A stretch of DNA of 64,000 nucleotides, from NCBI GenBank assembly GCA_031266915.1, contig JAISAB010000001.1, positions 37,994-101,993 of the forward strand, given 5' to 3'. The position numbers and the translations under genes are program-made. The notes under the pieces are model-generated. The model saw only the letters and a program-made list of their open reading frames with translations, was not told where the DNA came from and did no database searches. Below, in pieces: positions 1,499-64,000 of this stretch; position 1 is the stretch's first letter, and each line of letters opens with the position of its first letter. The stretch is from Rickettsiales bacterium (GTDB lineage Bacteria > Pseudomonadota > Alphaproteobacteria > Rs-D84).

Positions 1499-1699
1499 AT
1501 GAGCGAAACAAACAAAACAAAATTGTCTTTTGAAGAGGCTTACAAACAGTTGATGGAAATCGTCAAGAAAATGGAATCGGGCGAACTGCCCCTGGCCGAT
1601 TCGGTCGCTGCGTACGAGCAGGGCGTCAAACTAAAGGCTTATTGCGAACAATTGTTGAAAGAAGCAGAACTGAAAATCGAACAGGTCAAAATCAATTAA
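1499..1699 (+). CDS. xseB: Exodeoxyribonuclease VII small subunit
   Basis: 66 aa from Met at 1499 with AAGGA RBS; LSFEEAYKQLMEIVKKMESGELPLADSVAAYEQGVKL matches XseB consensus. Confidence 0.75.
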   Translation: MSETNKTKLSFEEAYKQLMEIVKKMESGELPLADSVAAYEQGVKLKAYCEQLLKEAELKIEQVKIN

Positions 1700-1783
1700 G
1701 AATTAAAAATTAACAATTAAAAATAAATGTGTCGCGCAGCGACATTCCATAATTCTTAATTCTTCATTCTTAATTTTTAATTA
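1693..1783. repeat. aattaagaattaa inverted-repeat element (family B) with a central GC hairpin
   Basis: aattaagaattaaaaattaa...gtgtcgcgcagcgac...taattcttaattcttcattcttaatt; copies at 5921, 28018, 46468. Confidence 0.55.
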
Positions 1784-1798
1784 TTCGGAGCGAATGCA

Positions 1799-4588
1799 AT
1801 GAGCGACAATAAACTTTCCCCCGTCATGCAGCAGTATGTTGATATGAAAGCCGAAAATCCGGATGCTTTGTTATTGTTTCGCCTGGGCGATTTTTACGAG
1901 GTTTTTTTCGAAGACGCCAAAACCGTCAGCGCGGCCATCGGAATTGTCCTGACACACCGCGGCGTCGACGCGAACGGCGACGATATTCCCATGTGCGGAA
2001 TTCCCTGGCATGCGGCGGACAACTATTTCGGCCGGCTGGTTCGTGACGGGTACAAGGTCGCGCTGGTCGAACAGATGGAGACACCCGCCCAGGCCAAGGC
2101 CGCCGGACGAAAATTTGTCACCCGCCAGGTCGTGCGCGTCCTGACGCCGGGCACGCTGACGGACGAGAATCTGCTGACGCCGAAGAATTCGAATTTTCTG
2201 GTCGCGGTCGCTCCCAGGAACAAGGAACAGGAACAAGGAACAGGGGTATTGTCACCCGTTCCTTGTTCCTTTTCCTCGTTCCTGATAGCCGGTTGCGATA
2301 TTTCGACCGGCGAATTCTTTATCGGCGAATCGGCGGCCATACTGGATGATTTGGTCCGCGTCAATCCGGCCGAAATTATTTATCCTGAAACAGACGCGGA
2401 AAACCCAGAAATCATGCGTCTGCGCGACACATTCAAAACGACGCCCGTTTATGAAAAGCTGTACAATCGCGCTGACATCGATCAAATAGTATTTAAGATA
2501 TTCGGACAGAACTTCGCCTCTTCGCGGCAGGTGGAAGAGCGCAGAGTGCAGAGCGCAGTTGAAAAATCGCAGGGCGATTTTTCATCGAATCACGAATCAC
2601 GAGTTACGAGTCACGCCGCCGCCGGTTTGTGTGGCAGCGCGACCTGCAATGGGGCGGTGGCGCTGCTGGCCGGGTATCTGTTCAATACCCAGCGCGACGC
2701 CAATATCGCGTTCCGCGCGCCGTACGCTTTCAAGGCCGGAACGCAATTGCTGGTTGACAGCGCGACTTGGAAAAGCTTGGAAATCGACAGCCCAATCAAC
2801 GACGGCGGAACATGTCTGGTCGACATTCTAGACAAGACCAAAACCGCTGCCGGGGCGCGGCGCCTGCGTTCATATCTGCGCGCGCTGTCGGGCGACATCG
2901 GCGAAATCCGCCGACGCCAGGAACACATCGGCCATCTGATTCTGAACCGCGACGTCATGGGCGGGCTGGAACGGATTCTATCCCGCGTGCCCGACGTCGG
3001 CCGCAGTCTGGCGCGATTGCTGTCGGGACGCGGCGCGCCGCGTGACCTGCGCGTGGCGGCCGATTTTATGGTCATGCTTGGCGATGCAAAATCCATGGGC
3101 GCCCGCTTGGATTCAGATTTGGCGGCCAAGTTCGCAAACATCGACACGCATGACGCGCTGGCGGGTGAATTGAAATTTGCGCTGAACGACGAACTGCCGA
3201 CTTTTTTCCGCGACGGCGGAATCATCCGCGCCGGATTCGACCCGTCGCTGGACAATATGAAAGAACTGGCGAACGGCGCCAAGGAAACAATCGCCGGCCT
3301 GCAGGCTCAGTACGCTGCTGCGACCGGTGTGGGCGCGCTGCGGATAAAATACAACAACATACTCGGGTATTTTATCGAGGTCCCCAGCCCCCGCGCCGAC
3401 GCGCTGATGAATCCTGAAAACGGATTTATTCATCGCCAGACAATGGCCGGCAACATGCGCTTTACCACGCCGCGTTTAATCGATTTGGACAATGATGTCC
3501 GCAGCGCCGCCGAAAAAGCCGGGGCAATCGAATCTGAAATCATTGCGAATCTGATTGAAAAAATCCGGGCGGCGGCCGACGATTTGCTGAACACGGCGGA
3601 ATTAATCGCGGACGCAGACGTGTGGCGCGCGCTGGCCGATGTGGCCGACGAATATTCATGGGTGCGCCCCGCCGTGACCGAATCCCGAGCGTTCGACGTG
3701 CGCGGCGGCCGCCATCCGGTTATCGAGGCCGTTCTGCGTTCCCGCGGCGACGCGTTCGTTAAAAACGACTGCGTCCTGGACGGGCGGCAAATCGCGCTGT
3801 TGACCGGTCCGAACATGGCCGGAAAATCCACCTATCTGCGCCAGAACGCGCTGATTGTCGTGCTGGCGCATCTGGGCGCGTTCGTGCCGGCAGAACGCGC
3901 CACAATCGGCGTCTGCGATCAGCTGTTCAGCCGCGTCGGCGCCAGCGACAACCTGGCCGCGGGCCAGTCAACGTTTATGGTCGAGATGACGGAAACGGCG
4001 AATATTCTGAACCGCGCGACGCGCCAGTCCTTTATCATTTTCGATGAAATCGGCCGCGGAACCGCGACATACGACGGCATGGCGATTGCCCAGGCCGTAC
4101 TGGAATTTTTGGATGACGTCAAACCGCGCACCTTGTTCGCGACACATTATCATGAACTGACCGCGCTGGTACCATCGTCAGAGTTCAAAGTTCAAGGTTC
4201 AAAGTTCAAATATTCCGGTGATGAACCCGGGATCACGATTTCGCAAGACGGTTCGGCTTGCGCCCATCTGAACTCTGTTAACTGTCTGACCATAGAAATT
4301 CGCGAGCATAACGGCGAGATTGTCTTTATGCATAAAATAATTCCCGGCGTGGCCAGCCGCTCCTATGGAATACACGTTGCAAAAATGGCCGGCATACCAA
4401 TATCGGTGATAAATCGCGCCGAAGACGTCCTGAACGCGCTAGAAACCCGGACCGACGCGCCTGCGCGAAAAACGCCGCCTGCGGTCAAAAAGGTCGAAGA
4501 TGTCGACATGATTGTCGACGAGCCGGGCGTAAAACCGCAAAAAGTCGCGGCGCCTGCAAACAAAACACAGCTTTCCCTGTTTGGATAA
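1799..4588 (+). CDS. mutS: DNA mismatch repair protein MutS (carries three in-frame repeat insertions)
   Basis: 929 aa; MQQYxxxK...LFRLGDFYE N-terminus, Walker A GPNMAGKST, TFMVEMTETA; insertions at 2213-2283, 2521-2615, 4181-4210. Confidence 0.9.
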   Translation: MSDNKLSPVMQQYVDMKAENPDALLLFRLGDFYEVFFEDAKTVSAAIGIVLTHRGVDANGDDIPMCGIPWHAADNYFGRLVRDGYKVALVEQMETPAQAKAAGRKFVTRQVVRVLTPGTLTDENLLTPKNSNFLVAVAPRNKEQEQGTGVLSPVPCSFSSFLIAGCDISTGEFFIGESAAILDDLVRVNPAEIIYPETDAENPEIMRLRDTFKTTPVYEKLYNRADIDQIVFKIFGQNFASSRQVEERRVQSAVEKSQGDFSSNHESRVTSHAAAGLCGSATCNGAVALLAGYLFNTQRDANIAFRAPYAFKAGTQLLVDSATWKSLEIDSPINDGGTCLVDILDKTKTAAGARRLRSYLRALSGDIGEIRRRQEHIGHLILNRDVMGGLERILSRVPDVGRSLARLLSGRGAPRDLRVAADFMVMLGDAKSMGARLDSDLAAKFANIDTHDALAGELKFALNDELPTFFRDGGIIRAGFDPSLDNMKELANGAKETIAGLQAQYAAATGVGALRIKYNNILGYFIEVPSPRADALMNPENGFIHRQTMAGNMRFTTPRLIDLDNDVRSAAEKAGAIESEIIANLIEKIRAAADDLLNTAELIADADVWRALADVADEYSWVRPAVTESRAFDVRGGRHPVIEAVLRSRGDAFVKNDCVLDGRQIALLTGPNMAGKSTYLRQNALIVVLAHLGAFVPAERATIGVCDQLFSRVGASDNLAAGQSTFMVEMTETANILNRATRQSFIIFDEIGRGTATYDGMAIAQAVLEFLDDVKPRTLFATHYHELTALVPSSEFKVQGSKFKYSGDEPGITISQDGSACAHLNSVNCLTIEIREHNGEIVFMHKIIPGVASRSYGIHVAKMAGIPISVINRAEDVLNALETRTDAPARKTPPAVKKVEDVDMIVDEPGVKPQKVAAPANKTQLSLFG

Positions 4589-4610: not shown

Positions 4611-5600
4611 ATGAACGGATGGATAATCTTGGACAAGCCGTCAGGCATGACCAGCCGCGCCGCGGGCGGGCGCGTCATGCGTATGTTTGGCGCCGAAACG
4701 TTCGGCCATATCGGAACCTTGGACCCGATGGCGTCGGGATTGCTGCCGATTGCGCTGGGCAATGCCACCAAGATGATTCCTTTTTTCGAGAGCGAAGAGC
4801 GTAGAGCGCAGAGCGAAGGTTCCGCCGCTTCGCGGCAGAGCGCAGGTCGCAAGTCGCAGGTAGAAGATGTTGATAATAACGAACCATCTACGCTCTGCGC
4901 TCTTCGCTCTTCGACCTCTAAAGAATATCTATTCAGCGTTCAGTTCGGATTCGAAACTGATACGCTGGATATTACCGGAACGGTTGTCAAGGAAACCAAT
5001 GTTGTCCCATTGCCGGCTCAGGTTATGGCAGCGTGCGCCGCACTGACCGGAACGATTTATCAAACGCCGCCGGCCTATTCCGCGGTGCATGTCGGCGGGC
5101 GGCGCGGCTATGAACTGGCGCGCGCGGGCAAAGAATTCGAAATTCCGCCACGCCCGGTTACCATCGACGCGCTGGAATTGCTGGACGCGGGCAGAAAATC
5201 CTGGCAATTCCGCGTGGTGTGCGCGCCCGGAACATACGTTCGCGCCATTGCCCGCGACATCGCCGCGATGTGCGATACGGTCGCAACCGTGGACATGATA
5301 CGGCGCCTGCGTACCAGCGGCCTGGATATAAAAGATGCGGTCGGGCTTGATTTTTTAGAAAATCTGTTTCATAATGGCGGGAACTTCGAAGATTATTTGA
5401 AGCCTGTGGATTTCGGACTGGGGGACATTCCGGTTCTGAATCTGAACGACGCGGACGCCGGTTTATATAAACAGGGCGGCTTTGTCGAAATTGCGGCGGC
5501 GGGCGAACCGGGATTGGTTCGGGTCTTTTCAAACGGGCGGTTCATCGGAATCGGAACGTTTGACGGCAACCTGTTGAAGCCGAAACGAACACTTAACTAA
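4611..5600 (+). CDS. truB: tRNA pseudouridine(55) synthase TruB with an in-frame 127-bp palindromic insertion
   Basis: [13 protein letters not shown] and [18 protein letters not shown] motifs; start moved to Met11 (4611) to avoid overlap with mutS. Confidence 0.85.
4789..4915. repeat. Family D palindromic element (gagcgaagagcgtagagcgcagagcg ... cgctctgcgctcttcgctcttcgac) inside truB
   Basis: Arms are reverse complements; copies at 27350-27485 (in queH) and 30911-30995 (fabG-mnmG spacer); fragments at 2521-2560 and 35581-35618. Confidence 0.75.
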
Positions 5601-9828: not shown

Positions 9829-11034
9829 ATGAAGAAAGATAACAAAGCACAGAGAAACAGATTTGGCTTTTTAAAGAAAACATGGTCTTGGATTAAACAC
9901 CGCAGGCGGTTGGCGATTATTGTCGCCGTATGCGCTGTGGGCGGCGCGCTGTGGCTTTTTGCCGGCGCTCAAAAATCCGTCCCGTCCCAATTTGCGTCGA
10001 CCGCGGTAACCAAGGGCGATTTGCGCCAGGTTGTCACCGCGACCGGCGAAATCAGGCCGATTAACACCATCAAGGTCGGTTCTCAGGTCAGCGGCACCAT
10101 CGAAAAAATCTATGTCGATTATAATTCCAAGGTCAAAAAAGGCGACGTTTTGCTGGAAATCGATCCTTCGGTCTTGCAGGCCTCGGTGGACGAAGCCAAA
10201 GCGTCCTTGGTCAGCGCCGAATCCCAGCGCAATTACGCGAAAAACGAATATACGCGTAACAAAACCCTGTACGGCGACGGATTTATCGCGCGCGCGGAAA
10301 TGGAGCAATCGCAGACAAACTACGAACAAGCCGACCAATCCGTCAAACGTATGAAATCCCAATACGACCGCGCGGTCACGAATCTGGGCTATGCGACGAT
10401 TACATCTCCGGTCGACGGCACCGTCATATCGCGCAAAGTGGACAAGGGCCAGACGGTCGCGGCCAGCTTTCAGACGCCTGACCTGTTCGAAATCGCCGAG
10501 GATTTGTCCCAAATGCAAATCGAAACATCCGTATCCGAGGCCGACATCGGCATGATTAAAGACGGCCAGGCCGTGACATTCACCGTGGACGCGTACCCGA
10601 CCCAGGTCTTCAACGGCCAGGTCCGTCAAATCCGCCTGTCGCCGACGACCACGTCGAACGTCGTTGTTTATACTGTCGTCATCAACCTGGACAATTCCGA
10701 TTTGCGCCTGATGCCGGGAATGACCGCCTTTGTGACGATTGTAATCGCCGAAAAGCATGATGTGTGGAAGGCCCAGAACTCGGCGTTCCTTATGCGCAGT
10801 TTCAGCGGCATTACCGACGCGCCGGACGATGTTACGCCGAAAACGCACCTGGCCGTCGAACGCGGCGGCAAGATAACGCTGGTTCCGTATAAAAAAGGCC
10901 TGATAACCGCGACCGAAACGGAAATTATCGCGGACGACCTGCGCGATGGCGACAGAATCGTCACCGGCAAACTGGGCCAGGCCGGCGCCGCCAACGTCCA
11001 GATGAGAATGGGCGGCGGCGGCGGACGCAGATAG
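9829..11034 (+). CDS. HlyD/MacA-family periplasmic adaptor (membrane fusion protein)
   Basis: Start set at Met 9829 with AAAAGGA RBS just after the tolC stop; N-terminal TM, biotinyl-lipoyl-like GTIEKIYV...GDVLLEID, beta-barrel region. Confidence 0.8.
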   Translation: MKKDNKAQRNRFGFLKKTWSWIKHRRRLAIIVAVCAVGGALWLFAGAQKSVPSQFASTAVTKGDLRQVVTATGEIRPINTIKVGSQVSGTIEKIYVDYNSKVKKGDVLLEIDPSVLQASVDEAKASLVSAESQRNYAKNEYTRNKTLYGDGFIARAEMEQSQTNYEQADQSVKRMKSQYDRAVTNLGYATITSPVDGTVISRKVDKGQTVAASFQTPDLFEIAEDLSQMQIETSVSEADIGMIKDGQAVTFTVDAYPTQVFNGQVRQIRLSPTTTSNVVVYTVVINLDNSDLRLMPGMTAFVTIVIAEKHDVWKAQNSAFLMRSFSGITDAPDDVTPKTHLAVERGGKITLVPYKKGLITATETEIIADDLRDGDRIVTGKLGQAGAANVQMRMGGGGGRR

Positions 11035-11037: not shown

Positions 11038-11610
11038 ATGAAAAACATAAAATCGCTGATATACGAAATCCGCGGCGCTCAGGTCATGCTTGACGGCGAC
11101 TTGGCCCAATTGTACGGAATGGAAGCAAAACGACTAAATGAATCAGTCAAACGCAACATCGGTAAATTCCCACCGGAATTTATGTTTCAAATTACATTGG
11201 GAGAATGGGATGACTTGAAGTCGCAAATTGCGACCTCAAGTTTGAATAACATTTCAATCTTGAAGTCACAAATTGTGACTTCAAGATGGGGAGGCCGTAG
11301 AAAGCCGCCTTTCGTCTTTACCGAACACGGTGTCGTCATGCTGGCGTCCGTTCTGAACAGTCCGGCCGCCATCCAGATGAATATAGCAATAGTCAAATCC
11401 TTTATAAGCATGCGCGACTACGTTTCCCAGCCGATTCACAAAAAATTGGAAGACTTGGAAAAAATTCTTATGCTGCATATCGACGACACAAGTTTGAATT
11501 TTGCCGGCCATTCCGATGCAATCAATGAGATTATTGACAAATTGAACAACATGATGGAACATCCGCGCCCAAAACGGCAAATAGGATTTAAACTGGAAAA
11601 TTCGAAATGA
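11038..11610 (+). CDS. ORF6N-domain protein (phage/plasmid-type DNA-binding domain) inserted in the efflux operon
   Basis: IRGAQVMLDGDLAQLYGMEAKRLNESVKRNIGKFPPEFMFQ...LKSQIVTSRWGGRRKPPFVFTEHGVVMLASVL matches the ORF6N consensus; AT-rich; stop and start overlap the neighbours. Confidence 0.6.
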   Translation: MKNIKSLIYEIRGAQVMLDGDLAQLYGMEAKRLNESVKRNIGKFPPEFMFQITLGEWDDLKSQIATSSLNNISILKSQIVTSRWGGRRKPPFVFTEHGVVMLASVLNSPAAIQMNIAIVKSFISMRDYVSQPIHKKLEDLEKILMLHIDDTSLNFAGHSDAINEIIDKLNNMMEHPRPKRQIGFKLENSK

Positions 11611-12326
11611 AAGAGCCGAAAAATATTATCTCAATGGATAAAATCTGCAAAAGCTTTCCCATCGAAATGGGCGGCCAGCAGCAGGTCTTGTTCGACATAA
11701 CCTTCGATGTCCAGGCCGGCGAGTTCGTCGCCATCATGGGCCCGTCGGGCAGCGGAAAATCCACCTGTATGAATATCATCGGGGCGCTGGACACGCCGAC
11801 TTCCGGCGTATACAGGCTGTACGGCGACGACGTCACCCACATGTCGTCCGACGGGCTGGCGTTGATGCGAAACGAGCATATCGGGTTCGTCTTTCAGAAT
11901 TTCAACCTGCTGTCGAAACGCAACGTGCTGGACAACGTCATGCTGCCGCTGATGTATCGCGGCCTGTCGACGGACGAGCGCGTCGAACGCGCGCGCGCCA
12001 TGCTGCGGCGCGTGGGCTTGGAAAACTTCGAGACCTATCTGCCGCCGCAGCTGTCGGGCGGCATGCGCCAGCGCGTGGCCATCGCGCGCGCCTTGGCCGG
12101 CGACCCAAAGCTGATTTTGGCGGACGAGCCGACCGGCGCCCTGGACAGCAAGATGGGCAACGAAATCCTGCAATTCTTCAAGAAATTGAATAAAGAGATG
12201 GGCATTACCATCGTCATGATTACCCATGAATTCGACATCGCGAAATACGCCGGGCGCCTGATTCACATCCGCGACGGCCGCATAAACTATGACGGCGCCA
12301 TACCAAAGGACGATAGGAACCTGTAG
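11607..12326 (+). CDS. MacB/LolD-type ABC transporter ATP-binding protein
   Basis: Walker A GPSGSGKST, signature LSGGMRQRVAIARAL, Walker B LILADEPTGALD. Confidence 0.85.
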   Translation: MKEPKNIISMDKICKSFPIEMGGQQQVLFDITFDVQAGEFVAIMGPSGSGKSTCMNIIGALDTPTSGVYRLYGDDVTHMSSDGLALMRNEHIGFVFQNFNLLSKRNVLDNVMLPLMYRGLSTDERVERARAMLRRVGLENFETYLPPQLSGGMRQRVAIARALAGDPKLILADEPTGALDSKMGNEILQFFKKLNKEMGITIVMITHEFDIAKYAGRLIHIRDGRINYDGAIPKDDRNL

Positions 12327-12758
12327 GAGATAGTAGATACTAGATACGAGATAGGAGATATGCAACAATGTCCAAAGACAGCATTGCGCTTGAAAAAAGC
12401 AAAAAGTTTTCAGTCCGGATAATAAGATTCAGCAAATATTTGGGCGACAAACGGCGTGAATATGTTATGTCTAAACAGATATTGAGGTCCGGCACAGGAA
12501 TAAGCGCAAATCTATCTGAAGCAATTTATGCCGTTAGCAGAAGCGATTTTTTATCTAAACTGTATATCGCGCTAAAGGAATGTTCGGAAACGTTGCATTG
12601 GTTGGAATTGCTAAACGAATCAGGATACATAACCGATTTGCAATATACGAGTATGCATTCTGATTGTGAAGAAATACGCAAAATGTTGTCATCCGCAACA
12701 AAAACCGTACGGGAAGTGTGATTGGTATCTTGTATCTCCTATCTACTATCTCGTATCT
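12325..12758 (+). mobile_element. Candidate miniature insertion: four-helix-bundle gene flanked by imperfect inverted repeats (ggagatagtagatactagatacgagataggagata / tatcttgtatctcctatctactatctcgtatct)
   Basis: Inverted gagata/gtagata-unit repeats at 12325-12360 and 12725-12758 bracket an AT-rich gene that splits the ABC ATPase from its permease. Confidence 0.35.
12368..12721 (+). CDS. Four-helix-bundle protein (23S rRNA intervening-sequence protein family)
   Basis: KQILRSGTGISANLSEAIYAVSRSDFLSKLYIALKECSETLHWLELL matches the family core (RSGTSIGANI.EA..A.S..DFI.K..IALKEA.ET.YWL). Confidence 0.65.
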   Translation: MSKDSIALEKSKKFSVRIIRFSKYLGDKRREYVMSKQILRSGTGISANLSEAIYAVSRSDFLSKLYIALKECSETLHWLELLNESGYITDLQYTSMHSDCEEIRKMLSSATKTVREV

Positions 12759-12775
12759 AAAAAACGGAGTTTTTT

Positions 12776-13993: not shown

Positions 13994-14000
13994 AACACTA

Positions 14001-14102
14001 GCGGATAGTCAATAGTCATTGGTCTATAGTCAATAGTTAATAAAGCCGTCGGCTTCGCCGACACATTCACTACCAACTAACGACTATAGACTACTGACTA
14101 TG
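14001..14102. repeat. Family A element with central terminator-like hairpin (gccgtcggcttcgccgac)
   Basis: atagtcaatagtcattggtctatagtcaatagtt ... aactaacgactatagactactgactat. Confidence 0.6.
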
Positions 14103-14353
14103 TAAATAACCTCTGGATTTATCTGGCAATTGCGGTATAATGTTCGTCGACAGGCGCGTTGCCTGTTATGGAATTAACAATCCATCACCAAAAGGGTCTT
14201 GAACAGACCATAAACCTTCACCCAAAAGGGGTGGAGGGCGGCGTTATAAGGCTTGCCGAAGGCGTTGCACTATACTTTTGGATAGTTTGTTAATCTCCAT
14301 CCCACCTTGATTTTTAAAGGTGGTTTTCTTTTTGAAAAAAAAAGGGGGATTCG

Positions 14354-14584
14354 ATGGGACGGCAAATCACAGATGACGAAATTCAATTCAACAAAGCGCT
14401 GGGACTGGTGATACGTGTTGCCAGAATAAAGCTTGGCGTGTCGCAAAAGATACTGGGAGAAGTCGTTGGCGTATCCCTGCAGCAGATTCAAAAGTACGAA
14501 GCCGGGGAAGACGGCGTCTCTGTCGCCCGGTTTAACAAAATGGCGACTTATCTGGAAATCCCGTTTAGAATATTTGAAAAATAG
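14354..14584 (+). CDS. XRE-family helix-turn-helix transcriptional regulator
   Basis: 76 aa; LGVSQKILGEVVGVSLQQIQKYEAG is an HTH_3 signature. Confidence 0.6.
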   Translation: MGRQITDDEIQFNKALGLVIRVARIKLGVSQKILGEVVGVSLQQIQKYEAGEDGVSVARFNKMATYLEIPFRIFEK

Positions 14585-14692
14585 CGATCAGCAAACATCA
14601 AATATGCGTTTATTTAAGATTTATGATTTACGGATTTAAGATTTAGTTCAAGTGACAGGAATATATCTTTTTGGTCCCAAAACCTCAAGACT

Positions 14693-14765
14693 CGTCATTC
14701 CCGCTTGGACCACCCACGAAAAACAGTCGTTTTTCGCGGGGCCTGGTGGCGGGAATCCAATGTAT
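14693..14765. repeat. Family H 68-bp hairpin element
   Basis: cccgcttggaccacccacgaaaaacagtcgtttttcgcggggcctggtggcgggaa; near-identical copy, reverse-complemented, at 28086-28152. Confidence 0.7.
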
Positions 14766-15238
14766 TCAAGCTGTGAACAATGCCCGTATGATGAATACAT
14801 TGGATACCGGCCTTCGCCGGGGCTAAAGGCACCCGAGGTGACAATTTTTATTGTCATCGCTTCGCGATGCTTTACGTACCTGCGCTAGGCGTGACAAAAG
14901 TTTGTTTTAATTTAAGGCACATCCCTGTCGGTTGAGCGATAAACTATACGCTATCTGCCATATGCTATTTTTTCCTATTTTTCCATTGTGCTGAAAATTC
15001 GCACGCGCTATAGTTGTCTTGTCGACGGGTGTTCCGTCGATGGGGTCTGATAACCCTTTATTGTGCGTCGTGAATAATCACCGCGCTTTTGCGCCGTTTT
15101 TATTTCGACGAAAAACAACTCCTGACTCGGTCAGGAGGGCGCGATATATCTGAATAAGCGCGCAATTCACAATATTGTTATCAGCCTCCTGACCGCCTAT
15201 TTTCGGCGGTTTTTACTTAACTGCAACAGGAGGATATT

Positions 15239-15460
15239 ATGGGGAAAATTTTGCTGCTTTTGATAATCGCCGCTTTCGCGTCCATTGGCTCGTCGCCATC
15301 GCATGCGGTACAATCATACCAAAGTATAGCGGCATGCACCAATGCGGGCGGGGTGGTTTATGACGGCTGCATGTGCAAGGTCGCAAAAACCACCACGAAC
15401 TACGGCGTCATAACCACCAGCACGGAATGCGGTACCATAGCCGGTCTGGCCTGCATCTAA
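15239..15460 (+). CDS. Small cysteine-rich secreted protein
   Basis: Signal peptide MGKILLLLIIAAFASIGSSPSHA; six Cys in 50 residues; RBS AGGAGG. Confidence 0.4.
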   Translation: MGKILLLLIIAAFASIGSSPSHAVQSYQSIAACTNAGGVVYDGCMCKVAKTTTNYGVITTSTECGTIAGLACI

Positions 15461-15473
15461 AAAAGGATTAAAA

Positions 15474-15857
15474 ATGTCTAGATTTGTCTCTGTTTTTTCC
15501 GGGCTGTCGTTGCTGTCTGGGGCGGCGGCCAGCGCGCCGCCGCCGACTTCGCTTGGCGACGAATGCGACACGAAATCATATACCTGCGCGAACGGATATT
15601 ACGGCACGCCGACCGATAGTTCTACCGGATGTACGCTATGCCCCGAGCACGCTACATGCGCCGGCACGGGCAACACAACATTCATATGTATTTCAGGATA
15701 TTATAAAATTGGCGCCACGTGTGCGCCCTGCCCCGATGGCGGCACATCAATTGCGGGCGCGCGGGCGATAACCGATTGTTATCTGCCCACTGGAACATCA
15801 TTTGAAGATGCGTACGGAACTTTTGAATTGACCGACAAGTGTTATTATAGCAATTAA
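15474..15857 (+). CDS. Cysteine-rich secreted protein (eukaryote-like CxxCP / GYY repeats)
   Basis: Signal peptide; CTLCPEHATCAGTGNTTFICISGYYKIGATCAPCPDGG; followed by a terminator. Confidence 0.5.
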   Translation: MSRFVSVFSGLSLLSGAAASAPPPTSLGDECDTKSYTCANGYYGTPTDSSTGCTLCPEHATCAGTGNTTFICISGYYKIGATCAPCPDGGTSIAGARAITDCYLPTGTSFEDAYGTFELTDKCYYSN

Positions 15858-15884
15858 AAAACCGGCAAAAAAGCCGGTTTTTTA
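15858..15884 (+). terminator. Rho-independent terminator
   Basis: accggcaaaaaagccggt hairpin followed by tttttt. Confidence 0.6.
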
Positions 15885-15887
15885 ATA

Positions 15888-15982
15888 AATAGTCGTTAGT
15901 CTATAGTCATTAGTGAATAGTGCTTAGTTTATAGTGCATAGTTAATAGTTCACTAATCACTATGCACTATTCACTAGTGATT
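15888..15982. repeat. Family A element
   Basis: atagtcgttagtctatagtcattagtgaatagtgcttagtttatagtgcatag...cactattcactagtgat. Confidence 0.55.
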
Positions 15983-16029
15983 AAAAAAACCATCATCCCC
16001 CAAGTTTTTGTAACGCTGACGCTAACAAA

Positions 16030-16330
16030 AACTTTCCCCCTTTATCAAGGGGGACAAGTGCTAAACCAAGGGGTAAAAGAGCTGAGCCAAATGGGATAAG
16101 TGCCAAACCGAGGGGGGAAAAGAGCTGAACAAATTGGATAAGAGCCGAATCAAGGAAGACAAGTGCCAAGTTTTGTGCCAGTGCGCTGTTCTGGGCTGTT
16201 GCCCCTTTCATTTCACGCTTGTTCCCAGCAACCTGGCGCCAGCCACTCTTGTTTCATACTTGTTCCTAGAACTTGGCGCTGGCCCCTCTTGTTAAAGAGG
16301 GGTGAAAATCTTGGCAACTTGTTGCCATAG
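16030..16330. repeat. Degenerate ~38-nt tandem units (acaagtgctaaaccaagggg...) followed by an inverted counterpart
   Basis: Three tandem units around 16045-16170, then cttgttcc...cttggcgctggcccctcttgtt on the other arm; non-coding. Confidence 0.4.
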
Positions 16331-16344
16331 ATTTTCGGGGAGAT

Positions 16345-16470
16345 TAATAGTTAGTCAACAGTCATTGGTCTATAGTCAGTAGTGTATAGCAAATAGCACA
16401 TACAATTAGGTGGTTATTTCAGATTTATGATTTAAGATATAAGATTTAGGCGACATTAAATCTTAAATTT
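16345..16470. repeat. Family A unit followed by family I gatttatgatttaagat repeats
   Basis: tagtcaacagtcattggtctatagtcagtagtg; agatttatgatttaagatataagatttag...taaatcttaaattt. Confidence 0.5.
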
Positions 16471-16537
16471 TCCATTTGCTATTTGATATTTGCTAATTGA
16501 TATTTAAAAAAAGCCGGCCTTTTTGACGATTTTTGCA

Positions 16538-24251: not shown

Positions 24252-24370
24252 TATAGTCTATAGTCAGTAGTCATTAGTGAATGTGTCGCGCAACCTGTCC
24301 ACCGAAGCCTTGGCGAAGGTGGAAGCGCGACGACTTTATTGACTATTGACTATATGATTATTGACTTTTC
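24252..24370. repeat. Family A element with central GC hairpin (gtgtcgcgcaacc...ccaccgaagccttggcgaaggtgg...gcgcgac)
   Basis: atagtctatagtcagtagtcattagtgaat ... attgactattgactatatgat. Confidence 0.6.
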
Positions 24371-27291: not shown

Positions 27292-28000
27292 AAAAATCCG
27301 CCTTGTTTTGTTGTCGTGCTGCGCGCCGTGTTCCTGCGGCGCTATAAAAGAGTTAGTAGAGTGTAGAGCGCAGAGCGAAGGTTTCGCCGCTTCGCGGCAG
27401 AGTGAATGTCGCAGGTCGCAGGTAGAAGGTGTTGATAATGACGAACCACCTACGCTCTGCGACCTGCGATCTACGCTCTTCGACTTTATCGTCTTGTTCT
27501 ATAACCCTAATATTTATCCCGATACCGAATACCAGAAACGGTTGGCGGAACAAATCAGATACTGCGAATCATTGGATGTGAAATATGCCGTCGGCGATTA
27601 TGACCACGCCGCGTGGCTGAATTCCGTGCGCGGCCTAGAATCAGAGCCTGAGCGTGGCAAGCGCTGCACGCAGTGTTTCCGCCACAGATTTCGTTTCGCA
27701 AAACAGTGGGCGATGGAAAACGGATACAACGCTATCGCGTCCGTTCTGGGCGTGTCACGTCACAAAGACCAGGCACAGGTCGACAGCGCGGCGCGGGAAG
27801 AAATAGGGAACGGGGAACCCGCCTTCGCCATCCACCTTCGCCGAGGCTACGGGGGACAAGAGGCTACGGCGGGCAGGCAGGAACAAGGAATAATTTATCT
27901 GCCTATCAAATTGGATGAAAGTCTGCGCCAGGAAATTAGCAAAAAGGCCGGCTTTTACCGCCAGAATTACTGCGGCTGCGAGTTTTCAATGCGAAAATAA
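27275..28000 (+). CDS. queH: Epoxyqueuosine reductase QueH (DUF208) with two in-frame repeat insertions
   Basis: LLSCCAPCS, LFYNPNIYPDTEY, RCTQCFRHRF, YRQNYCGCEFS hallmarks of QueH; insertions at 27350-27485 (family D) and 27805-27895 (family E). Confidence 0.7.
   Translation: MDAMHEKIRLVLLSCCAPCSCGAIKELVECRAQSEGFAASRQSECRRSQVEGVDNDEPPTLCDLRSTLFDFIVLFYNPNIYPDTEYQKRLAEQIRYCESLDVKYAVGDYDHAAWLNSVRGLESEPERGKRCTQCFRHRFRFAKQWAMENGYNAIASVLGVSRHKDQAQVDSAAREEIGNGEPAFAIHLRRGYGGQEATAGRQEQGIIYLPIKLDESLRQEISKKAGFYRQNYCGCEFSMRK
27350..27485. repeat. Family D palindromic element inside queH
   Basis: agagcgcagagcgaaggtttcgccgcttcgcggcagag...ggtagaaggtgttgataatgacgaaccacctacgctctgcg; co-linear with the truB copy. 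Confidence 0.75.
27805..27895. repeat. Family E element (ccttcgccgaggctacggcgggcaggcaggaacaaggaa) inside queH
   Basis: Reverse complement of 40094-40186; shares the ggaacaaggaacagg core with mutS 2213-2283. Confidence 0.65.
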
Positions 28001-30910: not shown

Positions 30911-30995
30911 AGTTCGAAGAGCGCAGAGCGTAGAGCGCAGGTGGAGTATATTGATAATAAGGAACCACCTTCGCTCTACGCTCTGCGAATTTCGA
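30911..30995. repeat. Family D palindromic element (intergenic copy)
   Basis: caagttcgaagagcgcagagcgtagagcgcaggtggagtatattgataataaggaaccaccttcgctctacgctctgcgaa. Confidence 0.7.
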
Positions 30996-33130: not shown

Positions 33131-36181
<3,051 letters not shown>

Positions 36182-36941: not shown

Positions 36942-36974
36942 ATCGAATTACGAGTCACGAATTACGAATCTCGA
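36942..36974. repeat. Family C cgaattacgagtcacgaattacgaatc repeat
   Basis: Copies at 2586, 37604, 41862, 45208, 50491, 52951; usually next to terminator hairpins. Confidence 0.55.
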
Positions 36975-36975
36975 A

Positions 36976-37003
36976 AAAACCGGCCGCGGCCGGTTTTTTT
37001 TAC
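36976..37003. terminator. Bidirectional terminator (aaccggccgcggccggtt with flanking A/T runs)
   Basis: Serves nth on + and the small genes on -. Confidence 0.55.
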
Positions 37004-37071
37004 CCGACCATATATCCGCATATAAATATCGCAACCGCGGCGATAGCGAATACAAACATTTTTGCTTTCAT
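37000..37071 (-). CDS. 23-aa hydrophobic micropeptide MKAKMFVFAIAAVAIFICGYMVG
   Basis: Perfect SD TAAGGAGG 9 nt upstream of the ATG, overlapping the stop of the upstream gene; followed by a terminator. Confidence 0.4.
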   Translation of the reverse strand: MKAKMFVFAIAAVAIFICGYMVG

Positions 37072-37560: not shown

Positions 37561-37633
37561 ACAAACTGATTATATCAGAATATAAGACAATTACAAATAA
37601 AATATCGAATCACGAGTCACGAATTACGAATCA

Positions 37634-37662
37634 CGAAAAAAACCGCCGAACGGCGGTTTTTT
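37634..37662. terminator. Bidirectional terminator downstream of pheT
   Basis: aaaaaaaccgccgaacggcggttttttt. Confidence 0.6.
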
Positions 37663-37666
37663 TATT

Positions 37667-40093: not shown

Positions 40094-40186
40094 AGGAACA
40101 GGAACAAGGTGCGGGAACGGGTTGTCTGTTCCTTGTTCCCGCCTGCCCGCCGTAGCCTCGGCGAAGGAGGGTTCCTCGTTCCTTTT
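40094..40186. repeat. Family E element in the pheT-pheS spacer
   Basis: ggaacaggaacaaggtgcgggaacgggttgtctgttccttgttcccgcctgcccgccgtagcctcggcgaagg. Confidence 0.65.
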
Positions 40187-50490: not shown

Positions 50491-50549
50491 TTACGAGTCA
50501 CGAGTTACGAATCACGAAAAAAACCGGTCTTTTTGCCGGCTTTTTAATT
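50491..50549. repeat. Family C repeat plus weak hairpin/T-run
   Basis: cttacgagtcacgagttacgaatcacgaaaaaaaccggtctttttgccggcttttt. Confidence 0.4.
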
Positions 50550-52945: not shown

Positions 52946-53532
52946 AATATTTCGGATTACGATTCACGAAAAAAATCGCGCCCGTTGGGCGCGATACTTT
53001 AAATACAAGGGATTCCCATCTTCATGGGAATTTCCTTACTTTTTCTTAAAACCCTGTTTCGCCTTGAATTTGGGATTGTCTGGGTCAATAAGAATAACTT
53101 GTTTGCCGCGGCGAATCTGTTTTACATTGCCGCGCTTTTTCCAAGCCTTCAAAGAACTTAAGAACTTCATGTCATATTCCTTTTTGCCATGCGATTATAA
53201 CCGCTTTTTATAAGAAATCAACCAAAACTTCTAATAATAGTTTAATATTCGCTATACATTCAACCGTTATATGAAATTTCAATTTCTTATTAATATATTG
53301 TTGTTGTTTTTATACAGGTTAAAATTGTTAAAAACGCTTTTAATTTTTTTATCAACTGATTTTCAACAAAAAAAGCCGGTGTTTTCGCGCCTGTTTATAA
53401 AAATGTTAAAAAATATCGCCGGTAATCAACAGTTGAAAAACATATAAGTTTCCGGCTTTTTCAACAAATTTTTCAGATTTGTTTTTATGCTTGTTGAAAA
53501 ATGTTGAAATTGTTATAATTAACCCGTACCGA

Positions 53533-53844
53533 ATGGAGACGAGAGAATTGCGGCAACAAGTCCTGAAAGCTTTGGCGAACCCATCGCGCATATTTTATGT
53601 GCCCTATACGCTGGCGGTTTTAAATTTCGTGCTGCAGTTTCTGGTATTCATCGTCATTTTCATAGGCGGTCTGATAATTTCCGGCGGCGGCGTGGGAATA
53701 AACCCTCTGGCGTTTTTAATATCCGTGATGGCGGTTCATTCGATTTTGGCCGGCTTTTCCAAACGAGAGCCTCAGCTGGCGCAGATTATCGCGGCCAAAT
53801 TGCGCCTATTTAAATCGCGCGCCCCGAACAAGTTGACGGCATGA
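53533..53844 (+). CDS. virB3: Type IV secretion system protein VirB3-like
   Basis: ~104 aa; IFYVPYTLAVLNFVLQFLVFIVIF ... VMAVHSILAGFSKREPQLAQI fits the VirB3 pattern; immediately upstream of virB4. Confidence 0.6.
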   Translation: METRELRQQVLKALANPSRIFYVPYTLAVLNFVLQFLVFIVIFIGGLIISGGGVGINPLAFLISVMAVHSILAGFSKREPQLAQIIAAKLRLFKSRAPNKLTA

Positions 53845-53845
53845 T

Positions 53846-56254
53846 ATGAATCAATTCTTGGAATATTTTATCACTGGGGGATTTTCGATGACATCGGTCA
53901 TTCTGGCCATGGCCGTCGTTTTCGTGTTCATTATCCTGATGTTGTACGTTCCTACAATCGCGCTGTGGATTTTCCCAAAGTTCGGATACAAGAAATATTC
54001 TCAATACCTGCCGTTCGCGACGGTGTTCACGGACAATTCGATTCAGCTGACCGACGGGTCCTTGATAAGGGCTTATAAAATCGACGGTGTTCAAACCAGC
54101 ATGCAGGACGAGAAAACCCGCAACCAATTCCTGGATTTGCGCGCACAGCTGTTCAACCAAATCAACGACCCCGGCGTTACCCTGCGCTTTTACACAATTC
54201 GCGATTTCGCGGCCGATAAGACTGATTACGAATTCGACGGGCCGACGCTGCAGAAAATTTACGACAAGTGGAACAGCCAGGGGTTGAAGATTTTCACGAA
54301 CAGCTATTATGTGGTTCTGTCGGTTGGCGGGTCGAACGCCAGAGAAAAGCTGAACCAGTACGGCAACTATATCGAATCCATACTGGCCGCGTACGGACCC
54401 AGCGTTCTGGACAACGCGCGCCCGGAAAATATGGCGAAATTGTTCGCCCGAATCCTATCGCCGATCACCAAGCCGCGGCCTGCACGGTGCGACCAAAGAA
54501 TCGCGGAAACAATAACCGTCGACGATGTGGAATTTCTGGGCAACGGACTGATCCGGTATTCCAGCGGCGCCAAAAAATCGTACGCCGCGACCGTATCGTT
54601 CAAGGTGTCCCCGGATTATCTGGACGAGGAATTCTTCAACACCGTGTCCACCATCCAATGCGAGATGATAACCATGAACGGATTCCGCATTATGGGCGCG
54701 GCCGATATAGGCAACGTCATCCGCCAACGGCGCGCCACGTCCGATAATAACGACGACGCGGCCGAGGAACAAATCCGCGACGCGCAATCCGCGATGGACG
54801 AGAACGCGGCCGGCACGCAGACGCTGCTGAACTATTACCCGCTGTTCGTTCTGTTCGGCGACACGGTCGAATCTCTGCAGGACGGCGTCGACGAATTCAA
54901 AAAGATTTCGGCGGCTTTCGGCATATCGCCGGTTGTGGAAAACTTTGCGTCCAAGGTTTCGTGGTTCTCGCAGATTCCTGGATTCGACGTGTTTCCGCGC
55001 AGTTTCAAAATGCTGTCGAAAACAGCCGCGGTCAGCATACCAATGTCATCGACGCCCAAAGGCGTCGCGAATTCAGACTGGGGTCCGGGCCCGCTGGTCG
55101 TATTTCCGACAGCCCAGGGAACGCCGTATATGTTCCAATTCCACGTATCCGCCGCGCCCGCGGCCGTGGGCCATACGCTGACGGTCGGCCCGACGGGCGG
55201 CGGAAAAACGACGCTGTTCTCGTTCCTGATAGCGCAATCGCTGCGACATCCGAAATTAAAGGCTTTCTTTTTCGACCGGAACAAGGGCGCCGAAATCTTC
55301 ACGCTGTCGGTCGGCGGAAAATACGTGACCATGCAGAACAAGGAAAAATCCGCCGGCATGGGATTCGAGGCGCATTTGAATCCACTGAAGATGGAGGACA
55401 GTGTCGCCAACCGCGCGTTCCTGCGCCGATGGCTCGCGATGATTTCGGGGCAGTCCGACACGCGTTCCGCGGACGAAATCGCACGCGCGGTATCCGTCAA
55501 TTTCGATTACTTGGGCGACAAGGACCGGATGTTGAAAAGCCTATGGGAAAGCTGCTTTTCGTCCGAGGGCAATATGCGCGGCGCGCTGAAAAAATGGGTC
55601 GACCCGCTGCAATACGGCGAAATATTCAATGAAACCGCCGATACGCTGGATTTGCAGTCGCGTCTGACCACGTTCGATTTTACCGAAATTCTGCAGGACC
55701 AGACATTGTCGCCGGCCGTGATTTCATACATCCTGCACCGGATAAACAACACGACCGTGTCGGGCGGAAATCCGTCGCTGATTATGATTGACGAAACGGC
55801 GCCGATGCTGGAAAACAAGATGTTCCGCGACAACTTTATCGTCGGCCTGCAAGAGGGCCGCAAAAACCGCCAGGCCTATATGGTGGCCTTTCAGCGCGCG
55901 AACGTGCTGGACAAGCTGGGTATCGGCGACGTGGTGCGCGGCCAGGCGCAGACGGTTTTATTCTTCCGCAATCCGGCGGCCGACGCGAACGATTACCAGT
56001 ACTGGAATCTCAATCCCTTGGAAATGGCGTTCATCCAGGGCAAGGCTTATCCGAACCTGAAGCGCGCGGTGCTGCTCTCGCGCCCGGTAAATGGCGAATC
56101 AGTGATTCTGAATACGGAGCTCGGCGGATTGGGCAGTTTGCTGCGCCTGTTCGAATCCGGCCGCTCCAGCGTGCTTTTGGCCGAAGAGCTGTACAGGCAG
56201 TACGGGAATAATTTCGTCGGCGAATACTTGCGCAAACAGGGCGCGGTGGAATAA
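53846..56254 (+). CDS. virB4: Type IV secretion system ATPase VirB4
   Basis: 802 aa; Walker A TVGPTGGGKTTLFSFL; Walker B LIMIDETAPML; N-terminal TM region. Confidence 0.9.
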   Translation: MNQFLEYFITGGFSMTSVILAMAVVFVFIILMLYVPTIALWIFPKFGYKKYSQYLPFATVFTDNSIQLTDGSLIRAYKIDGVQTSMQDEKTRNQFLDLRAQLFNQINDPGVTLRFYTIRDFAADKTDYEFDGPTLQKIYDKWNSQGLKIFTNSYYVVLSVGGSNAREKLNQYGNYIESILAAYGPSVLDNARPENMAKLFARILSPITKPRPARCDQRIAETITVDDVEFLGNGLIRYSSGAKKSYAATVSFKVSPDYLDEEFFNTVSTIQCEMITMNGFRIMGAADIGNVIRQRRATSDNNDDAAEEQIRDAQSAMDENAAGTQTLLNYYPLFVLFGDTVESLQDGVDEFKKISAAFGISPVVENFASKVSWFSQIPGFDVFPRSFKMLSKTAAVSIPMSSTPKGVANSDWGPGPLVVFPTAQGTPYMFQFHVSAAPAAVGHTLTVGPTGGGKTTLFSFLIAQSLRHPKLKAFFFDRNKGAEIFTLSVGGKYVTMQNKEKSAGMGFEAHLNPLKMEDSVANRAFLRRWLAMISGQSDTRSADEIARAVSVNFDYLGDKDRMLKSLWESCFSSEGNMRGALKKWVDPLQYGEIFNETADTLDLQSRLTTFDFTEILQDQTLSPAVISYILHRINNTTVSGGNPSLIMIDETAPMLENKMFRDNFIVGLQEGRKNRQAYMVAFQRANVLDKLGIGDVVRGQAQTVLFFRNPAADANDYQYWNLNPLEMAFIQGKAYPNLKRAVLLSRPVNGESVILNTELGGLGSLLRLFESGRSSVLLAEELYRQYGNNFVGEYLRKQGAVE

Positions 56255-56940
56255 TGTTCAAGGTTCAAAGTTCAAAGTTCAAAGAATTGTCGCGCCGGCG
56301 ATTGCCTGTATTGAAGTTCAATCTTTTATATATATATCTTATCTCGTATCTCGTATCTGGTATCTCATACGCGGACGATTGTCTGCCTTATAAATTAAAT
56401 CCTGAAATCGAGGTATTGACGCCGTCCTGGCACAAGGAGGTTGTCCAGCCGCTGAAACCTATGGAATTGTTGGACGGGCTGCATGGAAACGTAGTGGCCA
56501 CATTGGATAACGATTATGAGGTAACGGGCGACACGACGTCCGTCGAGGACGGTTTCTGCGTTTCGCTGAAATCGGTATCGGCGACCATCGGGTACAGCGG
56601 ATTCCAGGTCGGGATAGATTCGCGCCATGCGCCGGAATCATGCGTATACAACGCGATTTTAACGCACGAGGACGAACATATACGGGCCTATCTGTCGGTG
56701 ATAGACGATTACAGTGACGATATTCGGACGGCGGTCCGCGCGGCGGCGAACTCGGTCATGCCGATTTTCGTCCGAACCGGGACAGAGGCAGAATCGGCCC
56801 TTGATTCGCTGCACGACAGCCTGCAAAGCCATCCGGAATTGATTCTGATGAACCAGCGCATCCAGGCCGAACAGGAAATTAGAAACAAGCGCGTGGACCA
56901 GGTCGAAACCGGCAGTCATCTTAAGATGTGTATGGAATAA
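56254..56940 (+). CDS. Hypothetical secreted protein with HExxH motif (LTHEDEHIRAY) downstream of virB4
   Basis: 228 aa; the N-terminal 40 codons are built from family K (gttcaaggttcaaagttcaaa) and tatctcgtatct repeats; the true start may lie downstream. Confidence 0.4.
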   Translation: MFKVQSSKFKELSRRRLPVLKFNLLYIYLISYLVSGISYADDCLPYKLNPEIEVLTPSWHKEVVQPLKPMELLDGLHGNVVATLDNDYEVTGDTTSVEDGFCVSLKSVSATIGYSGFQVGIDSRHAPESCVYNAILTHEDEHIRAYLSVIDDYSDDIRTAVRAAANSVMPIFVRTGTEAESALDSLHDSLQSHPELILMNQRIQAEQEIRNKRVDQVETGSHLKMCME

Positions 56941-57061
56941 ATATTATATTATGTATAAATGGTCAGATTCTTTAGAGAATAACAACAATGTATTCAACAG
57001 TTGGTTGAATGTTTTTTAGAAATAGGTTCTTGTAACAATATGAATAAAAATGAGCCGTTTT

Positions 57062-60061: not shown

Positions 60062-60848
60062 TCTTGCGTCCTATTTTATATTATTCCTAGTATAGCACTA
60101 ATAAATGGCATAAAACAAGTTTTTATAGGGTTTAAAGAATATCAGATTTTTCGCTTATCATCTTTTTTTGCGGAATTAAAGGCGTGTCAGACTATTGTTG
60201 CCGCGATATAATCCGGCGATGTAAACATTTCTAGATGCCATCTGGAACGAAAGTGCAAAAATGAGTTTTCCATAAAGCATAATTTTGAAGTGGATGCAGA
60301 GCCATCAATCAACGAACTAAACGAATCCAAAGGCCTTTTTAAAGCATTGGAAGATTATAAAATAAAAGTATCTAAAGATAACCCAGTTTTTTTAGTATCC
60401 TGCGCTTGAATTTGCAAAATTAAAAAACTCTCTATAATTACATAGAACTAAATTTGGTTGTTCGCAATAGACAAAGTTCTAACCAACCATGTGTACGAGT
60501 TGGTAGATTTTATAAACCAGTAAAATCCCTTTCGGGAACTGTTATCTATCGAGCACAATGAACTAATATCTATAGCCACCAGAAACCGTAATTAATAGCA
60601 ATAATCTACCTCAAACATCCAATTTTTACCCAAACCTTGATAATAACACCAATTTTCACTCCCAAGGCTTTCAGACCTTTTGTTTCGTTTATAACCTATT
60701 AATATTTCTTAGTAATCTTAAATAACAATTGATTTTATGCAGATTGTAGGATATTGTAAAATTAATAAAGCGCGGTGGCAAATAACCAAAATTGGTAGCA
60801 AAAAGCACCCGTGGTAGCAAATAGGTAGAAAAAAAATGAAAAGGTAAT

Positions 60849-61646: not shown

Positions 61647-61668
61647 AATCAACTTTACCGAACGTGTA

Positions 61669-63967: not shown

Positions 63968-64000
63968 TTTGGAAAAAATTGTTCAGCAAAACACAATCCT
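63960..64000 (+). CDS. Partial gene (MSNLEKIVQQNTI...) overlapping the SIR2 stop by 8 nt; truncated by the window edge
   Basis: ATG at 63960 in the +1 frame relative to the SIR2 stop; translational coupling implied. Confidence 0.3.
   Translation, partial: MSNLEKIVQQNTI

Follow-up and report, generated by a model that had tools for sequence, protein, structure and literature searches.

The mutS gene of a Rickettsiales bacterium carries heptamer-built inserts at three loops of an otherwise intact protein. We analyzed 64,000 nucleotides of contig JAISAB010000001.1 (the window), in which mreB, xseB, mutS, truB and rpsO follow one another consecutively. Judged by sequence comparison, the mutS inserts are lineage-specific, dispersed and family-structured arrays and hairpins that have been filtered by selection into tolerant loops of an intact gene. 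They are probably tolerated passengers, that is, copies or fragments of genome-wide elements that lack an open reading frame (ORF), possess heptamer-built arms and resemble both Rickettsia palindromic elements (RPEs) and 23S rRNA intervening sequences (IVSs). Such elements would be small and non-coding, with arms of three to five tandem heptamers that are often present as an inverted pair giving a long hairpin. They would spread by copying, and selection would then filter the insertions so that the survivors sit in variable loops, with no function specific to mutS. The gene and its inserts are located as follows, with the supporting evidence in parentheses (TRF, Tandem Repeats Finder):

1799-4588, forward strand: mutS, an intact, uninterrupted ORF of 929 aa (ORF list)
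2210-2289, forward strand: insert 1, a GGAACAA-family heptamer-armed hairpin (inverted repeat I2; TRF periods 7 and 13; fold)
2513-2558, forward strand: insert 2a, an AGAGCGC-family fragment (blastn to the truB and queH elements, 30916-30940 and 35582-35600)
2560-2584, forward strand: insert 2b, a mini-hairpin TGAAAAATCGC-AGG-GCGATTTTTCA with an 11-bp stem (fold; self inverted match)
2584-2615, forward strand: insert 2c, a lone CGAATCA array of 4.3 units (TRF)
4178-4261, forward strand: insert 3, a GTTCAAA array (4178-4210) plus ~50 nt of unique sequence with small hairpins (TRF; codon alignment)

Two of the occupied loops belong to the connector domain and the third to the ATPase domain. The initial annotation had described three independent in-frame repeat insertions at 2213-2283, 2521-2615 and 4181-4210, and all three blocks were found in place, within a frame that is continuous from 1799 to 4588. 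The number of sites is correct but the number of insertions is an undercount, as site 2 combines at least two families with a mini-hairpin. Likewise, the third block (family K in that annotation) is indeed an array, but the true insertion is larger, with a net length of ~78 nt extending to ~4261. The alignment to MutS orthologs suggested as a check was carried out, and the inserts were placed on E. coli MutS structures by HMMER alignment and on Pfam coordinates, using the domain limits of the published E. coli structure. An AlphaFold2 model of MutS based on a 26-sequence alignment reached a mean predicted local distance difference test score of 51 and was set aside as too poor.

Insert 1 consists of 35-nt arms that are 86% complementary, are built from GGAACAA and GGAACAG units and enclose a 10-nt loop. 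In addition to period 7, TRF detects period 13 at 100% match, and a perfect 13-nt repeat of 2.3 copies is located at 2215-2244. Predicted folding energies are -28 kcal/mol for the DNA (z = -8.9) and -49.8 kcal/mol for the RNA (z = -9.7), with a stem of ~31 bp in the mRNA. RNase III cuts double-stranded RNA of ~20 bp or more, so this stem could, at most, make the mutS mRNA a substrate of the enzyme. The two arms mirror one another including an irregular 6-nt unit, which indicates that one arm was copied from the other. The insert encodes residues ~139-162, a net gain of 16 codons compared with the relative P0002/L081, and lies where the first beta-hairpin of connector domain II turns (E. coli MutS ~133-137). 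At site 2 (2513-2615), insert 2a is composed of the core CTTCGCGGCAG and an AGAGCGC/AGAGTGC array at 2536-2558, and the whole site adds a net 35 codons to a loop late in connector domain II (E. coli ~204-238). Insert 3 adds a net 26 codons to ATPase domain V, in the loop that connects THYHELT to the following beta-strand (E. coli 738-744). The segment ctgaactctgttaac downstream of insert 3 was considered as a degraded right arm and rejected, as it represents the conserved coding sequence LNSVNC.

MutS appears to be a functional protein. It is 100% identical to MDR1337434.1 ('MAG: Rickettsiales bacterium'; MAG, metagenome-assembled genome) and possesses the five-domain MutS1 architecture with Pfam MutS_I, II, III, IV and V each scoring over the cut-off, while E. 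coli MutS structures match it at E ~1e-136. In an alignment with 25 relatives of 837-907 aa, the Phe-X-Glu motif GDFYE (D31, F32, E34), Walker A (GPNMAGKST, G670-T678), Walker B (DEIGRGT, D749-T755), the ABC signature (STFMVEM, S724-M730) and the THYHE motif are all invariant. Codon alignments were made with the DNA of three relatives, P0002/L081, P0005/L082 (GCA_031555055.1) and P0003/L084. The ratio of nonsynonymous to synonymous divergence (dN/dS) is 0.097 against L082 and 0.151 against L084, indicating purifying selection; against L081, dS is saturated and dN is 0.12. Because the catalytic motifs are invariant and dN/dS lies at 0.10-0.15, mutS is not a pseudogene and looks functional. Conserved motifs and purifying selection together imply that the inserts are translated as extra loop peptides, which include EQEQGTGVLSPVPCSF and, from insert 2c, SNHESRVTSH. 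Neither of the objections that the initial annotation had raised against itself holds: the inserts do not break catalytic motifs, and the inserted segments are not conserved across the 25 relatives. The window sequence stems from a MAG, and repeats can mislead assemblers, but a pseudogene or an assembly artefact in which repeats were collapsed or mis-joined into mutS is rejected as extremely improbable. Besides the continuous ORF, the intact motifs and the low dN/dS, conserved sequence flanks each insert on both sides and independent assemblies agree, with L082 (NCBI) identical to L083 (Logan) and arrays also present in L084 (ENA) and in finished plasmids.

The three insert loops are the only internal length-variable positions of the MutS family in the alignment with 25 relatives. 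The nearest genomes are MAGs of Candidatus Enterousia, a genus of unplaced Alphaproteobacteria, at 62-67% identity, and the closest MutS relative, L081, is 83% identical over aligned columns. No relatives above 76% identity were found, the best metagenome match being 65%, and the window MutS forms a cluster of one, no second strain of the species having been found. L081 and more than 20 further relatives do not contain the three inserts, and L082 and L084 bear other inserts, heptamer or GC-rich hairpins, at the same three loops. In exactly the interval of insert 1, L084 possesses a different heptamer hairpin (AAATGTA/AAATGGT) and L081 none. In the loop of insert 3, unrelated GC-rich hairpins are found in L082 and L084. 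L082 contains a CGAATCA array at the site and in the frame of insert 2c with 27 of 30 nt identical to the window despite a dS of ~1.9. Two further mutS loci were observed among planctomycetes. In the unrelated L011 (uncultured Planctomycetaceae, 11976-12098), mutS contains a 43-aa in-frame heptamer hairpin (GAGAGAC/CTCTCCT) just before Walker A, and in L021 (Bythopirellula) inverted TTCCGCC/GAAGGCG arrays (9884-9921 and 12443-12476) bracket the whole gene.

The recurrence of inserts at the same three loops in three lineages could be taken to indicate that the inserts are adaptive, forming new MutS interaction loops or a regulatory RNA structure for mutS expression. The 90% identity of the CGAATCA array between the window and L082 and the ~31-bp mRNA stem of insert 1 also point in this direction. 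An adaptive role is nonetheless very improbable, given that the closest relative and more than 20 others do without inserts, that the sequences at sites 1 and 3 are wholly different between lineages and that identical repeat families occur in unrelated genes and spacers.

A simple rule on stop-free units and orientations accounts for the array copies that survive inside ORFs. Because 7 and 3 share no factor, an array of at least three heptamer units yields one and the same set of seven codons whichever frame is used, so that a stop codon in the unit closes all frames and a unit without one leaves all of them open. For the same reason, the term "in-frame" used in the initial annotation is meaningless for a heptamer array itself; only the total inserted length and a unit free of stop codons are relevant. 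GGAACAA and AGAGCGC are stop-free on both strands and represent the families with full hairpins inside ORFs. CGAATCA and GTTCAAA contain TGA on the reverse strand and are present in mutS only as lone forward arrays; CGAATCA is found in ORFs only in forward orientation because its reverse complement contains this stop codon. In truB of L082 (13206-13239), the sole unit of a 4.7-unit ATAAATC array that would read TAA in frame is GAA instead, and the ORF is open. Inside genes, arrays persist only in variable loops and only in stop-free orientations.

Heptamer arrays are abundant throughout the window. Period-7 runs number 56 compared with 5.25 in second-order Markov shuffles, and 23 compared with 0.05 when a stricter score is applied. 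For periods 5, 6 and 8-10, the excess over shuffles does not exceed ~3-fold at the loosest score and disappears at the stricter one. After merging, 51 arrays of 2-5 units each (median 22 nt) remain in 36 loci, with >30 canonical heptamer units and 8 clear inverted same-unit pairs in 64 kb. Non-coding DNA contains 3.2 arrays per kb and coding DNA 0.39, and nearly every intergenic spacer of the window holds arrays. In-frame arrays inside ORFs are found in mutS, truB, queH, mnmG, ileS, pheT and dnaG. The repeat families recur outside mutS within the window. The suggestion of the initial annotation that the colonization of a mismatch-repair gene is special is not supported, as the same arrays are found in non-coding DNA and in the other genes named above. 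With 3 array sites compared with ~0.6 expected (P ~0.02, post hoc), mutS is mildly enriched, in line with a long protein that has three tolerant loops. MutS-dependent repair recognizes loops of ~1-4 nt, so that slippage loops of 7 nt mostly evade it and the state of mutS should have little bearing on how stable 7-nt units are.

In other bacteria, mutators are known to arise when repeats in mutL and mutS change in length, and unit lengths of 7 and 13 are both indivisible by 3. The heptamer arrays and the perfect 2.3-copy repeat of insert 1 could thus be imagined as a contingency locus, a reversible frameshift switch of mismatch repair that creates mutator subpopulations. The heptamer arrays are, however, short and imperfect (85-90% matches). 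Similar arrays are located in the essential genes ileS, pheT, dnaG and truB, where an off-switch would be lethal, which makes a contingency switch in mutS highly unlikely.

Several further properties were evaluated for the arrays of the window. A constant 5-nt core with a variable spacer within arrays, in which variation would be limited to 1-2 of the 7 phases as for a protein-binding periodicity, was rejected as not significant (P = 0.34 after simulating detector bias), as was TGTCGCGCAGCGACA as a loop motif of all hairpins, given only ~3 real copies in one family. A terminator role for the hairpins of the mutS region is not supported, with 11 sites in the scan compared with 8.3 expected. GC skew in the window tracks gene orientation without a replication signal, and an Rfam scan of the window identified 4 tRNAs only and no rRNA gene. 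At three intergenic locations (36944-37005, 37604-37665 and 50491-50545), a CGAATCA/CGAATTA array is followed by an A-run, a GC stem and a T-run, similar to an intrinsic terminator, and the three sites resemble a dispersed "array plus terminator" module. A large gene-poor region beside parB (13994-16537) contains many TAGTNNN arrays together with tandem repeats of 42 and 40 nt (16046-16293) and a small ORF (15474-15857) that is rich in cysteine and has a weak VSP-like match. From 53479 to 64000 the GC content drops to 36-42%. The genes of this segment include one that is VirB3-like (53479-53844) and one for a Type ISP restriction-modification enzyme (57065-60061), and the segment probably represents an island gained by horizontal transfer.

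The families represented in the mutS inserts are dispersed across the window and beyond. AATTAAG is present in 6 copies, AGAGCGN in 5 or 6, CGAATCA in 4, GGAACAA in 3 and GTTCAAA in 2, and the families of the mutS inserts are seen again at 40094, 36944, 37604, 50491, 56256 and 30915. The CGAATCA copies outside mutS are located at 36944-36975, 37604-37637 and 50491-50517 and the second GTTCAAA copy at 56256-56284. Four related elements outside mutS are:

1694-1785, forward strand: AATTAAG-family heptamer hairpin that fills the xseB-mutS spacer (TRF, inverted repeat, fold)
4781-4925, forward strand: ~140-nt palindromic element in frame in truB (inverted repeat I1; fold z = -5.3)
27356-27490, forward strand: second copy of the truB element, in frame in queH (blastn, sequence comparison)
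40094-40186, forward strand: GGAACAA-family hairpin with a nested small palindrome in the pheS-pheT spacer (blastn, sequence comparison)

The truB element is composed of AGAGCGN arms, a unique core and a GTCGCAG sub-array, results in a net gain of ~40 codons and is absent from truB of L081 and L082. It is 91% identical to the queH copy (27358-27461) over 104 nt, the non-repetitive core included. The xseB-mutS spacer measures 1 nt in L081; in the window, L082 and L084 it contains a heptamer hairpin that differs among the three. The xseB stop codon comes from the first heptamer unit, namely AATTAAG in the window (1694-1702), TAGTCAA in L082 (~9913) and CAGTAGT in L084 (~700). A small palindrome, CCGNAGCCTNGGCGAAGG, is nested in heptamer hairpins at 24302-24319, 27835-27852 (reverse strand) and 40150-40167 (3 compared with 0.09 expected), which suggests a second, smaller repeat family inserting into heptamer hairpins.

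In L082, whose MutS is 75% identical with a dS of ~1.9, 13 arrays are found in 22 kb, and 5 of 14 canonical units are identical to window units compared with 0.53 expected by chance. No heptamer arrays are present in L081 or in four Enterousia genomes (L001-L004), and 80 metagenomic relatives as a group show no period-7 excess. These comparisons indicate that the arrays represent a lineage-specific bloom instead of a trait of the whole Enterousia clade. Intergenic TTTGAAC arrays, the reverse complement of GTTCAAA, were observed in four otherwise array-poor metagenome relatives (L102, L110, L111 and L120).

One heptamer-armed element of the window contains a gene. This cassette is described as follows:

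12324-12759, forward strand: IVS-type cassette of 436 nt (Pfam/NCBIfam, fold, empty site in L082)

The cassette gene (12368-12721) encodes a 117-aa four helix bundle protein (PF05635, E = 5.6e-27; NCBIfam TIGR02436, E = 1.1e-29). It is flanked by an AGATAGN array (12324-12360) and an inverted TATCTNN array (12725-12759), which form a terminal stem in both the minimum free energy and the centroid fold (z = -4.7). The insertion separates the ATPase gene of a macB-type transporter from its permease gene, and L082 possesses a clean empty site, at which these two genes overlap in the junction TAATG. The closest homologues of the cassette protein are found in Firmicutes and Endomicrobium MAGs at 60-69% identity, which suggests acquisition by horizontal transfer. 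In the same macAB-like operon, an ORF6N-domain (KilA-N-like) gene is located between the membrane-fusion and ATPase genes (11038-11610), a junction that in L082 contains a heptamer hairpin only.

PF05635 genes are associated with heptamer arrays across phyla. We compiled 30 PF05635 loci (from L165-L178, L179-L196 and L197-L205) comprising Firmicutes/Endomicrobium contexts, 17 non-redundant IMG/VR loci (18 taken, with L188 and L189 as near-duplicates) and 8 finished plasmids. The plasmids derive from Nostoc, Dolichospermum, Planktothrix, Euhalothece, Treponema, Bernardetia and Chlorohelix and cover cyanobacteria, spirochaetes, Bacteroidota and Chloroflexota. A heptamer array lies within 150 nt of the gene at 26 of the 30 loci, on both sides at 20 and as an inverted same-unit pair at 17, compared with a background, taken from unrelated loci totalling 2.1 Mb, of 0.106 arrays per kb, equal to 0.035 per flank pair. 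The flanking arms often contain ~4.7 units. In 50 kb of the Nostoc punctiforme plasmid pNPUN02, just two heptamer arrays occur, and they flank the sole PF05635 gene. The PF05635 matches among plasmids are mostly from Nostoc and other filamentous cyanobacteria, the taxa in which short tandemly repeated repetitive (STRR) heptamers were first described. Among the arm units, TAATTCG/AATTACG resembles the window family CGAATTA, and AATGGAT matches the pheT insert. PF05635 genes were also often observed within restriction-modification or helicase defence operons. An association between PF05635 and heptamers was not found in the searchable literature beyond the Coxiella IVS.

The evidence has to be weighed between mobile elements and an origin in place. 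Insert 1, the truB element and the cassette possess a terminal inverted-repeat stem built from heptamers, and inserts 2c and 3 are solo arrays without one. In the window a PF05635 ORF is found between arms in the cassette only, the mutS inserts having a 10-nt loop or being solo arrays, and they are therefore at most ORF-less derivatives of IVS-type elements. The odds are about even that the hairpins are ORF-less relatives of IVS-type cassettes. Several observations weigh against passenger elements. The mutS arm families differ from the arms of the window's own cassette, and a direct derivation from it consequently lacks support. Inserts 2 and 3 are not hairpins by fold (z = -1.0 and -1.8), which we attribute to the survival rule for stop-free units. 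No target-site duplication is present at the four boundaries compared with empty sites, including mutS site 1, truB and the PF05635 cassette, and no transposase, reverse transcriptase or REP-associated tyrosine transposase (RAYT; REP, repetitive extragenic palindrome) is encoded by the ORFs scanned in the 64-kb window. The hairpins also appear to replace ancestral loop codons instead of separating them, which leaves the insert boundaries ambiguous, and the CGAATCA array shared by the window and L082 at one site is a poor fit to simple independent insertion.

Some of these points favor an origin in place, in which local 7-mer slippage creates an array (the "long SSR" model of Mrazek et al. 2007; SSR, simple sequence repeat) and template switching its inverted arm, with no mobile element. 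Boundaries without target-site duplications, the lack of a transposase, the different hairpins in the same MutS loops of three lineages and the mirrored arms of insert 1 are all in line with this model. Two papers ascribe the heptamer SSR excess of many bacteria to polymerase slippage (PMC4679880, PMC4692102, citing Mrazek 2007). An origin in place nevertheless seems unlikely, since unit families recur across loci and across genomes with saturated synonymous sites (the 5 of 14 shared with L082), the truB and queH elements share their non-repeat core, and arrays are tightly tied to PF05635 genes, both at the 26 loci and on pNPUN02. Tolerated copies of dispersed elements are the better explanation for this combination.

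If the inserts are passengers, they represent hitch-hikers in tolerant loops, and mutS shows no sign of mismatch-repair decay or of adaptation specific to repeats. The gene would be part of a second, independent case of RPE-like selfish DNA in essential protein-coding genes, outside Rickettsia, in which a simple rule on stop-free units and orientations accounts for the surviving array copies. More tentatively, and with the balance tilted against it, the heptamer-repeat excess of many bacteria (STRR, GGGAATC, TAACTGA and the window arrays) could be the footprint of one widespread class of selfish elements. The full form of such an element would be a PF05635 gene (S23p, Avd-like) bracketed by inverted heptamer arrays, with 23S rRNA IVSs merely the best-known insertions. 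In some lineages ORF-less hairpin derivatives would bloom, entering in frame even essential ORFs such as mutS, and the Avd-like protein may help to propagate the elements. PF05635 shares homology with Avd, which serves diversity-generating retroelements as an accessory protein (PMC10053308). The cross-phylum link between PF05635 and heptamers thus provides a concrete possible origin for the bacterial heptamer-repeat excess and a starting point for finding out what a very common "hypothetical" Avd-related protein family does.

Compared with known systems, the window elements share features with several classes of bacterial repeats. [quoted passage not shown] Eukaryotic foldback elements possess inverted arms of tandem sub-repeats. 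In contrast to MITEs and REPs, the window elements show no target-site duplication, and no parent insertion sequence or RAYT was found for them; REPs, moreover, are extragenic with a fixed, species-specific sequence. Heptanucleotide long SSRs are known as cyanobacterial STRR, Xanthomonas GGGAATC and Beggiatoaceae TAACTGA repeats (PMC4692102, PMC4679880). They resemble the window arrays in their period of 7, a mode of ~4 units, occasional inverted pairs, a mostly intergenic location and a patchy phylogeny, but the published cases involve one or few units per genome and almost no genic copies (PMC4692102, PMC4679880). In the window, by contrast, >30 canonical units are present, arrays often pair into hairpins and essential genes contain copies in frame.

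RPEs are short dispersed palindromes of several families that are found in frame in unrelated housekeeping genes of alphaproteobacterial hosts, leave these genes functional, add surface peptides and have no known transposase (PMC10969869). The palindromic repeats of the window are similarly located in frame in mutS, truB, queH, ileS, pheT, dnaG and mnmG, with the genes intact. They differ in their host, an Enterousia-related gut-type MAG and not Rickettsia, and in their arms, which are tandem heptamers of many unrelated sequences in elements ranging from 30-nt solo arrays to ~140 nt. The likeness considered here is one of insertion pattern and architecture. The 23S rRNA IVS of Coxiella burnetii is 428 nt long with an S23p ORF and a 28-bp terminal stem, contains 3-4 GACAGAT heptamers in variable number, is excised by RNase III and is regarded as selfish DNA (PMC4990558). 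A terminal stem of ~28-35 bp made of 3-5 tandem heptamers with an optional four-helix-bundle ORF is common to both systems, and the window cassette fits this description. The window elements are, in contrast, located in mRNA-coding DNA and spacers instead of rRNA helix 45, and the mutS copies have no ORF. As RNase III excision cannot rescue an mRNA, the mutS copies must be translated through. On the basis of these comparisons, the inserts appear to combine RPE-like, in-frame selfish DNA with IVS-like, heptamer-armed hairpins, and a general association of PF05635 with heptamer arrays may explain a long-standing oddity of bacterial repeat content.

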